From NCBI GenBank assembly GCA_964608675.1, contig CAZSOZ010000002.1, positions 96,001 through 160,000 of the forward strand: a DNA stretch of 64,000 bases, in the 5' to 3' direction. Position 1 is the stretch's first letter, and every line of letters starts with the position of its first letter. The notes beneath the pieces were generated by a model, which made no database searches, had not been told where the DNA came from, and saw nothing but the letters and a program-made list of their open reading frames with translations. Source of the DNA: an uncultured archaeon. Its GTDB lineage: Archaea > Iainarchaeota > Iainarchaeia > Iainarchaeales > 1-14-0-10-31-34. A program made the position numbers and the translations under genes. Shown one piece after another: positions 62,196 to 64,000 of this stretch.

Positions 62196-62259
62196 CCGGT
62201 TGCGTCCGGCTGAAACGAAATATATCACTCTATCTGCAATAGAACATTAATATATTCTT
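62193..62259 (-). repeat. Two-hairpin structured repeat, copy 2 (fills the whole gap between convergent stop codons)
   Basis: Homologous to 5621-5685 with compensatory changes. Confidence 0.85.
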
Positions 62260-63422
62260 AAATTCCTGCTTCTTTTTTCAAAGTGTCTGCTTTATCGGTT
62301 TTTTCCCAAGTAAAATCAAGGTCGTTTCTTCCAAAATGACCATAAGCAGCAGTCTTGCAGTAAACAGGCCTCTTTAAATCCAAATGCATGACAATTTCAG
62401 CCGGCTTCAATGCAAAATGCTTTCGTACTAATTCACATATTTTGTTTTTTGCAATTTTTTCTGTTCCAAAGCAATCCACATTCACTGAAACAGGCTCAGG
62501 ATAACCAATAGCATAAGCAAGCTGGATTTCACATTTATCTGCAAGTCCTGCTGAAACAATATTTTTTGCAATATATCTTGCCATATAAGCAGCGCTTCTG
62601 TCAACTTTGGAAGGATCTTTTCCAGAAAAAGCTCCTCCTCCATGCCTTCCTATTCCTCCATAAGTGTCAACAATAATTTTTCTTCCTGTAAGACCTGCAT
62701 CAGCAAAAGGCCCGCCCCTAATAAAAGCACCTGTAGGATTAACATAAAACTTGGTTTTGTCGTCAATCCATTCACCGCACACAGGCTTAATTATTTTTTC
62801 CAAAACTTTTTCTTTTAATTCTTCATATTCAACTTCTTTAGTATGCTGAGTTGAAACAACAACTGCATCAACTCTTAAAGGCTTTCCTTGTTCATTGTAT
62901 TCAACTGTAACCTGGCTTTTTCCATCAGGACCCAAAAAAGTAAGTCCATTACTTCTTCGAATTTCAGCTAATTTCATGCACAATTTATGCGCTAAAATAA
63001 TAGGCAAAGGCATTAATTCAGGAGTTTCATTTGAAGCATACCCAAACATTAAACCTTGATCTCCGGCTCCTTGTTCATGATACAAAGAATCCTTTTCATT
63101 TACTCCTTGAGCAATATCTGGGCTCTGCTCTGTAATCTGAGTCCACACAGAACAAGTTTCATACTCTATTCCATATTCCGATTTAGTGTAGCCTATATCC
63201 TTAATTGTATTCCTTACAACCATAGGGATATCCACATAAGCTTTAGTAGTAATTTCCCCAAAAACATTTACTCCTCCGTTTTTTGTTGCAGTTTCGCATG
63301 CAACTCTTCCATCAGGATCCTCTTTAAGTATTGCATCAAGGATTGCATCAGAAATTTTATCACACATCTTGTCAAGGATGTCCTTCGGTAACAGATTCCG
63401 AAGTGAAGAGAATTTTCTCCAT
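62258..63422 (-). CDS. metK: S-adenosylmethionine synthetase (bacterial type), with one extra T after codon 16
   Basis: ATG 63422 gives [16 protein letters not shown]-stop; the +1 frame continues [10 protein letters not shown]...GAGDQG...GGGAFSGKD...YGHFGR. Confidence 0.95.
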
Positions 63423-63424
63423 GA

Positions 63425-64000
63425 CTAGACCACCTCCTTAGCTCTGAGAGCCACAGCATATTGATCAAATTTTCTTGACAAACATAAATTCGAGTCTTTA
63501 TTATAAATAAACTTCGCTAATTGCAAGCCTCTTTTACAGGAATATTGCAATATGTAAACATTGCTTGAAACTTTTCTTACCTTTCCTTTAATGCCAATTG
63601 AATAAATTTCTTCAGCCATTTTTTCTAAAAAAACTTTTGACCCAGAAGAAATAGTTATCTCAAAATAAGGGCTTTTTTCTCTTTGAACATACCTAATATT
63701 CCCATCTCCATCAATTACTCCCCTCAAAAAATGCCTCAAATATTTTCTCGGTATGTTTGGAAACTTAACTGAAAGAGATTTTCTGGGAGTTAAACCAAAA
63801 CCCATCAAATCTTTGCATATTGCTTTATTGTTTATAATTAAACGATATGAATTTGTTTTTGATGAATATAAAAGCTCTTTCGTGCTTTCCATCAGCAAAC
63901 GCATTCTTTCAAGATGCTTTTTATCCTTCTCTGAAGCAGTAATAGTTAAAGACCTGTATGACTTTAGCGGATTCCAGTTTATATTTCCGTCAGCAAAAAC
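63425..64000 (-). CDS. Double-motif LAGLIDADG homing endonuclease (5' end outside window)
   Basis: Frame open to the window edge: ...VFADGNI (motif 1) ... GLTPRKS ... FLRGVIDGDG (motif 2) ... LSRK; own stop codon, no intein C-terminal HN. Confidence 0.9.
   Translation of the reverse strand, partial: VFADGNINWNPLKSYRSLTITASEKDKKHLERMRLLMESTKELLYSSKTNSYRLIINNKAICKDLMGFGLTPRKSLSVKFPNIPRKYLRHFLRGVIDGDGNIRYVQREKSPYFEITISSGSKVFLEKMAEEIYSIGIKGKVRKVSSNVYILQYSCKRGLQLAKFIYNKDSNLCLSRKFDQYAVALRAKEVV
63430..63439 (-). promoter_or_regulatory. Strong Shine-Dalgarno for the metK start
   Basis: AAGGAGGTGG 7 nt before ATG 63422, embedded in the endonuclease 3' end. Confidence 0.8.

Follow-up and report, generated by a model that had tools for sequence, protein, structure and literature searches.

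The subject of this analysis is metK, the gene for S-adenosylmethionine (SAM) synthetase, near the end of a 64,000-nucleotide (nt) stretch of DNA from an uncultured archaeon (contig CAZSOZ010000002.1; hereafter the window). It lies on the minus strand and has one extra T between the codons for GHP and DK of the conserved GHPDK motif. The extra T was found to be linked to a gene for a free-standing LAGLIDADG homing endonuclease (HE), to belong to a gene of mosaic structure, to be spread polyphyletically among DPANN archaea, and to be kept where the endonuclease gene has decayed. The link to the HE is the main new finding. We propose, with a probability of about 0.62, that the T is part of a mobile HE cassette in which it would block self-cleavage, and that it would be decoded by +1 ribosomal frameshifting. 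The metK cassette is best read as an archaeal analogue of the MobA/gene 60 cassette of phage T4. Throughout, a carrier is a genome whose metK has the extra T at this junction; all carriers are metagenome-assembled genomes (MAGs). Labels of the form G###, L###, P####, C# and X# denote genomes, loci, database proteins, contigs and sequencing runs, respectively, and G000 is the window's own genome.

In the window, metK starts with a Shine-Dalgarno (SD) motif and an ATG (63422-63420), runs through 16 codons to CCT (63377-63375), and then meets TGA (63374-63372), the next base being C at 63371. Dropping one T gives DKMCD, starting with GAC at G63373, and 371 intact codons up to the stop at 62260-62258. 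Both the break and its layout, GAA GGA CAT CCT TGA C, were read exactly as in the original prediction, which had been made from the letters of this DNA. The +1-frame product contains the three S-AdoMet synthetase domains in order (PF00438, PF02772 and PF02773, with 113, 164 and 226 bits versus cut-offs of 33, 29 and 25; E values from 9e-33 to 2e-67). The N-terminal SESV.EGHPDK motif of MetK is split by the T over two frames and becomes whole only after a +1 shift. The stop codon of the HE open reading frame (ORF), a TAG at 63427-63425, lies 2 nt ahead of the metK ATG. The 16S rRNA 3′ end of G000 ends ...GGATCACCTCCT.

The same site recurs in other genomes. In-frame (G/A)HPDK was observed in all 29 relatives sampled first, five genus-mates included, and intact GHPDK in 79 of 80 metagenome loci (79 of 79 usable ones, the remaining one being at a contig edge) and in 79 of 80 species-representative loci. 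A private recent mutation was favored after the first intact relatives and was overturned when pattern scans reached further genomes. The scan pattern consisted of the metK motif plus one extra base, in which the Pro codon, the inserted base and the choice of Asp codon (GAY) were left free. The first pattern gave four matches among 215 genomes of the window's phylum and a looser one gave six, namely G000, G114, G115, G122, G128 and G189, which belong to three families and five genera. G128 was first seen in a family survey, where four of the 18 genomes with a readable N-terminus were carriers. In a second DPANN phylum, which includes one record labeled Aenigmatarchaeota, 17 of 371 genomes were carriers. 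This brings the total to 23 carriers among 586 DPANN genomes. All 23 fit CAY-CC(T/C)-T-GAC-AAR, with T and then GAC in every case. The heptamer CCT TGA C is identical in 22 of them, and G566 has CCC TGA C. The reversed control pattern gave no match, and a third archaeal phylum, sampled with 401 genomes, gave two pattern matches, both outside metK. The recurrence of the site is far above chance. All 23 verified metK genes have a start codon, a mini-ORF ending in ...(S/A)(V/M)T.GHP-stop, and a +1 frame starting DK.CD. Within the window's phylum, 95 of the 215 genomes show the intact metK pattern, and no carrier is among them. The original prediction had suggested looking for a recurring CCN followed by TGA, TAA or TAG at this junction, and CC(T/C)-TGA-C was indeed found in 23 genomes; it had also held that uninterrupted GHPDK in all relatives would speak against recoding, which appeared to be the case in the first 29 and did not hold in the wider scan. 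In addition, five database MetK proteins (P0026, P0028, P0044, P0071 and P0082), about 73% identical to that of the window, begin exactly at MCD and likely come from further carriers whose genes were shortened by gene callers.

The HE of the window matched LAGLIDADG_3 (PF14528) with 42.2 bits (cut-off 22.5) in two stretches, and LAGLIDADG_1 weakly. Its two motifs, ..FVFADGNI.. and ..GVIDGDGNI.., each contain an acidic residue, and the HE of G189 reads DGGG in the second motif. The open frame has 294 codons in total and passes the window end to about 64309 (G000:C2:159425-160309). A full-length HE was found upstream of the frameshifted metK in five carriers (G000, G189, G566, G491 and G411). 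The homologues in the latter four show 53-63% identity, and the G411 copy has an internal stop. Six further carriers retain a C-terminal remnant of the HE in the DNA upstream of metK: G128 (70 residues, E 2e-18), G532 (E 3e-11), G114 (0.004), G499 (0.008), G115 (0.02) and G122 (0.02). Altogether, 11 of the 21 carriers with enough upstream sequence have an HE or a remnant, versus none of the 19 non-carrier loci searched in the same way. The HE ORF is absent at the locus in 29 relatives, where a divergent CBS-HTH gene adjoins metK. The spacer from the CBS start to Asp17 is 227, 227, 287, 369 and 1018 nt in five carriers, and 148-217 nt, with one at 296 nt, in non-carriers. No HE homologue of more than 50% identity was found elsewhere in the 215 genomes of the window's phylum; weaker LAGLIDADG matches are many, at other loci or within inteins.

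Some further features of the HE elements were observed. In all five full-length elements (L001, L283, L320, L327 and L333), the HE ORF and the metK body share one reading frame (+1), with one stop and about 17 sense codons in between. This shared frame may be inherited from the origin of the element. The leader ahead of the HE contains a metK-like stretch altered between P and DK, which reads EGHPAYLSD in G566, EGHPSYLCD in G491 and VHPSHYCD in G000. The best E values for this stretch were 0.038 in G566 and 0.006 in G491, with none in G000, which is a weak hint that the T protects its allele from the HE. Insertion of the HE inside metK, with the old 5′ end left upstream in G000, was considered and rejected, the weak protein-level relic being kept as a hint only. 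In the nucleotide alignment, the G000 leader starts with about 117 nt of native promoter and 5′ untranslated region, followed by sequence with no clear metK homology. The HE-metK unit of G189 has no usual CBS-HTH neighbor and sits on a long branch. In its genus (g33), the intact metK pattern was found in one of 16 other genomes and most show neither pattern; the whole HE-metK unit of G189 may have been gained horizontally.

The metK genes of the carriers begin with a distinct common cassette, in which the SD and start regions as well as the encoded N-terminal peptides are related. GGAGGTG-type motifs are found at the metK SD position in other carriers. The 26 nt upstream of the site are identical in G000 and the carriers of family f23, and the synonymous sites of the G000 mini-ORF fit the f23 carriers and not its own genus. 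Beyond the T, every carrier gene resembles that of its own genus. The carriers are dispersed over the gene-body tree: G000 grouped with its own genus at 100/100 support, G114 and G115 formed a pair, and G122, G128 and G189 were separate. Since the 5′ cassette is shared and the gene bodies are scattered, the cassette, with or without the HE, has moved between lineages. Judging from the alignments, its downstream end is at the T or within about 15 nt of it; in the window, this end was placed by eye from the alignment rows (Table 1). The MetK of G115 (L270) is 97% identical to that of G114 (L262) over the first 250 codons and 73% over the last third, which resembles G122 (L269). This pattern points to recombination inside metK between genera.

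Table 1. Features at the metK locus, in window coordinates.
Feature	Position	Strand	Remark
HE ORF, 3′ part	63425..64000	minus	free-standing LAGLIDADG, directly upstream of metK
metK SD motif AAGGAGGTG	63431..63439	minus	within the 3′ end of the HE ORF
metK frame-0 mini-ORF, ATG + 15 codons, ends ...TEGHP	63375..63422	minus	cassette-borne 5′ gene end
Putative shift site CCT TGA C (Pro codon, frame-0 stop, C)	63371..63377	minus	the extra base is one of T63375/T63374
metK body, +1 frame, 371 codons from Asp17 (GAC) + stop	62258..63373	minus	three MetK domains
Approximate right-hand cassette end	63359..63370	minus	carrier-like for about 9 nt past the extra T (GACAAGATG), then own-genus-like

These observations are consistent with the following mechanism. 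The extra T would belong to a mobile cassette built round the free-standing LAGLIDADG HE gene, which is positioned between the metK promoter and the metK start, and the cassette would supply its own SD, start codon and first 16 metK codons. The HE would cut the conserved EGHPDK-coding DNA of cassette-free alleles. Because the catalytic motif cannot change its amino acids and only three wobble positions are left, immunity would be gained by inserting 1 nt at the center of the target, which would make the cassette allele uncuttable with the catalytic residues unchanged. An added nucleotide separating the two half-sites would stop a LAGLIDADG enzyme from cutting. During translation, peptidyl-tRNA-Pro on CCU, facing UGA-C, would shift +1 and resume at GAC (Asp17), restoring GHPDK, as the selection acting on the gene suggests. 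The T would then persist once the HE had decayed. The signs of HE cleavage and homing are indirect and consist of the polyphyletic carriers, the apparent mosaic breakpoint at the T and the decay of the HE. The original prediction had listed an endonuclease scar as an explanation competing with recoding. Its endonuclease part is now, with the HE link, the best-supported reason for the extra T; it goes with recoding, however, and not against it.

Bonocora et al. (2011) reportedly described phage T4 MobA and gene 60 as a mobile cassette. In the accessible parts of PMC5009743 and bioRxiv 10.1101/2022.08.31.505936, the T4 system comprises an HE, a 50-nt bypassed insert that protects against the HE, and a replacement coding copy ('HomR'), and the HE is often pseudogenized or lost with the insert retained. 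The metK cassette resembles the system described there in several ways. In both, an essential gene is interrupted in a highly conserved part by a short non-coding insertion next to a free-standing HE, and the element carries a coding replacement, which is HomR in T4 and the 16-codon 5′ cassette here. In both, host genes from unrelated lineages have acquired the element, and many copies keep the insert after pseudogenization or deletion of the HE. The T4 insert, according to the same text, protects against the HE, and the extra T may have this role in metK. There are also differences. MobA is an HNH enzyme acting on a phage topoisomerase gene, whereas the enzyme here is a LAGLIDADG protein in archaeal chromosomes and the gene a metabolic housekeeping gene. 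The T4 ribosome hops over 50 nt with matched take-off and landing codons; the metK insert is 1 nt and would be passed by a +1 shift at a Pro codon and a stop. The metK HE lies upstream of the whole gene, and unlike in T4 the gene is not split in two.

Three other systems were compared. The prfB gene for bacterial RF2 (CUU UGA C), the site layout of which is given in the original prediction, likewise has an early frame-0 UGA followed by C, a shift on the codon before, purines 3 nt upstream of the shift codon, and a downstream frame encoding the functional protein. Its product senses the stop in an autoregulatory and broadly inherited circuit, whereas the metK site is sporadic and tied to a mobile element, its SD-like stretch is forced by Glu-Gly codons, and the organisms are archaea. 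Archaea generally use one release factor for all stops. LAGLIDADG inteins are similar in that a selfish endonuclease is directed at the best-conserved coding DNA of an essential gene and the host protein is kept whole; at the metK site, in contrast, there is neither an in-frame insertion nor splicing domains, and the repair would occur at translation and not by protein splicing. Finally, CCC_UGA shifty stops are given for the Listeria phage tsh gene and the E. coli pheL leader in the accessible part of PMC5009743. They too have a P-site peptidyl-tRNA-Pro next to an A-site UGA, and G566 has exactly CCC TGA C; the cases described there are bacterial or from phage, whereas 22 of the 23 metK sites are CCU UGA.

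No further in-frame stop was found in the available metK body of any of the 23 carriers. Eighteen bodies end at a stop after 362-435 codons, three run off their contigs, and two are open for more than 505 codons and are probably intein-bearing. Over the first 240 codons, the ratio of nonsynonymous to synonymous divergence (dN/dS) was 0.041 for the sister pair G114/G115 (dN 0.021, dS 0.515) and 0.056 for G399/G400 (dN 0.035, dS 0.615), which is the calculation on the downstream frame that the original prediction had called for. The upstream cassettes have diverged within the carrier pairs, with about 18 mismatches between G114 and G115 in a roughly 100-nt HE remnant, and therefore the T predates the split of each pair. 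While the HE decays by deletion or stop codon, the metK body, the start codon and the mini-ORF stay intact, and the mini-ORF retains its start and the ...SESVTEGHP residues across carriers. In G000, MetK deviates at one of 138 columns that are at least 99% conserved (rank 7th of 120 sequences), and dN/dS versus genus-mates is 0.11-0.18, compared with 0.13-0.15 among the genus-mates. No signal of relaxed selection was thus seen on G000 metK, at dS values of 0.7-1.1 at which a recent event would be undetectable. The genome has one metK match, and no archaeal-type methionine adenosyltransferase (MAT; PF01941) was found in it. The same family was found in none of the six carriers tested, each of which has a single metK. 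The combination of a second intact MAT with relaxed selection, which the original prediction had named as evidence against recoding, was therefore not found, and its core claim that metK is decoded by a +1 shift and is not a dead gene gains support from the recurrence in 23 genomes, the intact bodies and the dN/dS values of 0.04-0.06.

The site has the layout of a shifty stop, with the frame-0 stop right after a Pro codon and a +1 frame that continues the protein (GAC AAG...). A +1 shift on CCU or CCC at the frame-0 UGA would be the simplest route to an enzyme bearing GHPDK, and given the recurrence of the break and the purifying selection, the ribosomes in carriers probably skip the extra base. 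Two other routes were rejected. Reading TGA as a sense codon does not solve the problem, since frame 0 still meets TGA TAA five codons later, and TGA is an ordinary stop in G000, where it closes 216 of 745 long ORFs. A suppressor tRNA with an 8-base anticodon loop was not found in G000 by ARAGORN, which listed one plain tRNA-Pro(GGG) and a doubtful intron-bearing one.

A number of points weigh against the proposed mechanism. We infer the frameshifting, the HE activity and the HE target alike from comparison of genomes. Ten carriers with at least 1.4 kb of upstream sequence gave no HE trace at E<0.1, and two carriers have no upstream sequence, so that for these 12 the suggested link to an HE is through the shared site alone. 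All five genus-mates lack the cassette, which therefore looks recent in the window's own lineage, and G000 alone cannot separate a working gene from a fresh pseudogene. The dN/dS argument from the sister pairs assumes vertical descent of the cassette within each pair. It is conceivable that metK is dispensable in these phyla, as the gene is not universal: neither metK pattern was found in 114 of the 215 genomes of the window's phylum, and no metK match in 11 of 41 relatives from the same order. The decoding signals are also modest. That the prfB-like purines before the site are forced by the Glu-Gly codons, a caution already raised in the original prediction, turned out to be largely so, and the purines GAAGG(G/A) are present in intact metK genes as well. 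A true GGAGG precedes the site in one of 22 carriers (G189), the 16S rRNA 3′ end being ...CACCTCCT. No excess of RNA structure was detected in the 60 nt downstream (mean z +0.40 for 21 carriers versus -0.19 for 38 intact genes). Since no clear stimulator was found, the efficiency of the shift could be low. Re-pairing of a tRNA from CCU to CUU is poor. CCC_UGA is a documented +1 shift site in the accessible part of PMC5009743, where no documented CCU_UGA case was found, and 22 of the 23 sites here are CCU.

Among the alternatives, the T could mark a pseudogene, if the HE cassette or the misrepair of a cut inactivated metK and these host-dependent archaea took SAM from their hosts. The patchy occurrence of metK and the probably recent arrival of the cassette in G000 described above would fit this, as would the general abundance of frameshifted genes in such MAGs (nine candidates among 575 in G005, of the same genus). 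Locus L148, in which a different and probably disabling 31-nt insertion lies a few bases away, would fit as well. However, the metK body is free of any second lesion in all 23 carriers. The low dN/dS holds for two independent sister pairs with the T in common, at dS of 0.5-0.6, it is the HE that decays while the metK body, start codon and mini-ORF remain, and the frame-0 context is invariant at CC(T/C)-TGA-C. We therefore regard loss of function as improbable.

The original prediction had put forward a SAM-sensing switch, in which low SAM would reduce m1G37 (1-methylguanosine at position 37) on tRNA-Pro and the methylation of release factor, raise +1 shifting and hence yield more MetK. When m1G37 is lost, CCN codons become more prone to +1 slips. 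A Trm5-family enzyme (156 bits) and the tRNA-Pro(GGG) are both encoded in G000, and the layout with the stop in the A site and a following C resembles that of prfB. A regulatory benefit would also explain why the T outlives the HE, being kept in the 10 carriers with enough upstream sequence and no HE trace and over dS of about 0.5-0.6. Protection from circulating HEs would account for this persistence just as well, as would the low chance of an exact 1-nt reversion, no observation links the shifting to SAM, and the distribution is sporadic (six carriers versus 95 intact genes in the phylum) and linked to a mobile element, unlike that of the broadly inherited prfB and antizyme sensors. The switch is thus unlikely as it stands. 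A combined form, in which the T is a former endonuclease-immunity mark that was domesticated as a 'translational intron' whose +1 removal needs m1G37 and release-factor methylation, is likewise doubtful. If it were true, metK would be the first archaeal cellular gene with a metabolite-sensing programmed frameshift; DPANN archaea would tune MetK to the SAM supply, and the survival of the site past the loss of the HE would be explained.

MetK might also be made in two pieces, or from an internal start near codon 19, with no frameshifting at all. Split NrdA and gene 39/60, enzymes left in pieces by other free-standing HEs, are precedents in the accessible part of bioRxiv 10.1101/2022.08.31.505936. 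Codon 19 is ATG in G000 and six other carriers and GTG or TTG in three more, and the recorded gene call for the window metK is a 369-aa protein starting at MCD. In 13 of the 23 carriers, on the other hand, this codon is ATT, ATC, ATA, CTT or CTC. Since a usual start codon stands there in 10 of 23 only, an internal start is not a general solution, and the nearest SD-like purines, about 14 nt upstream of codon 19, are poorly spaced. The His and Asp of GHPDK are catalytic in MetK, and the body alone would be made without them. A 16-residue peptide is unlikely as a stable subunit. We consider production in pieces very unlikely.

The extra base was also examined as a possible error. The original prediction had proposed mapping reads to 63374-63375, with 'a single A' there (plus-strand wording, metK being on the minus strand) as evidence against recoding. 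A Logan contig from run X2 (record 13), obtained from another sample of the same study, holds the same T; it is 625 nt long, spans 63166-63790 with 0 differences and 0 gaps, and has a depth of 5.6. Runs X1 (the probable source), X3 and X4 gave no piece across the site, and nothing was drawn from them. A comparison of the 619 long ORFs shared by G000 and G005 gave a single convincing case of a frameshifted conserved gene in G000, which is metK. Fifteen other matches of an ORF end in another frame were low-complexity or stop-ridden upstream DNA, one being a tRNA-like stretch. Because metK alone is frameshifted among the shared ORFs and the X2 contig agrees, the G000 assembly appears clean and the T is present in the DNA. 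A sequencing or assembly error, for which one could cite the low depth of the single independent contig and a source run with no usable piece, is negligible as an explanation given the same base in another sample, the identical site in 22 other genomes from many assemblies, a shift site that is not a homopolymer run, and no other convincing frameshift in G000. The two-frame candidates of G005 came from the reverse comparison (for example C2:83670-85570, C2:166428-167277 and C9:24773-25731); several break in mid-gene, and they could be assembly errors or real pseudogenes.

Other insertions were noticed in metK genes. The MetK proteins of the DPANN genomes G004 (L026), G039 (L028), G007 (L029) and G016 (L030) have an in-frame insertion of 500-600 residues near residue 250-258 with LAGLIDADG similarity, which is probably an intein. 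G435 (L322) and G454 (L324) probably have the same insertion and appear to carry the +T site too. Since these probable inteins occur besides the HE cassette, metK seems to have been hit by two different endonuclease-based selfish elements. At L148:1355-1450, on a 3-kb contig of an MAG labeled Methanosarcinales, the 31-nt insertion mentioned above lies a few bases after GHPDK and introduces a stop and a frameshift. The CBS-HTH gene and metK are separated there by a 123-codon ORF with a LAGLIDADG-like stretch and no Pfam match. The L148 insertion has no obvious take-off and landing codons that would allow a bypass. It may represent another type of lesion linked to an endonuclease with this target, or the gene may be a pseudogene.

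The genome of the window is archaeal, its rRNA genes fitting the archaeal small- and large-subunit models. It has 1.2 Mb, about 30% G+C and a completeness of 94%. Outside the window, many small contigs (among C10 and C15-C52) have 40-68% G+C compared with about 30% in the large contigs, and they are probably mis-binned foreign DNA.

No published account of a metK with a frameshift, or of any archaeal frameshift linked to an HE, was found in a search that left most subscription journals outside. The accessible part of PMC5009743 gives only a handful of archaeal programmed frameshift cases. If the proposed mechanism is true, metK of the carriers would hold a conserved programmed +1 frameshift in an archaeal housekeeping gene, of which, as far as that text goes, very few are on record. 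It would also be the second known pairing of an HE with translational recoding after phage T4 gene 60, from which it would differ in endonuclease family, kind of recoding and domain of life. The finding suggests a rule, that where an HE targets a protein sequence that cannot be changed, immunity may be reached through a frame-breaking insertion mended by the ribosome. The cassette, of about 60 nt, is a candidate for a ready-made, testable archaeal frameshift signal. Gene callers shorten the metK of carriers, and metabolic reconstructions of DPANN archaea may therefore mis-score their MetK as broken or N-terminally truncated.

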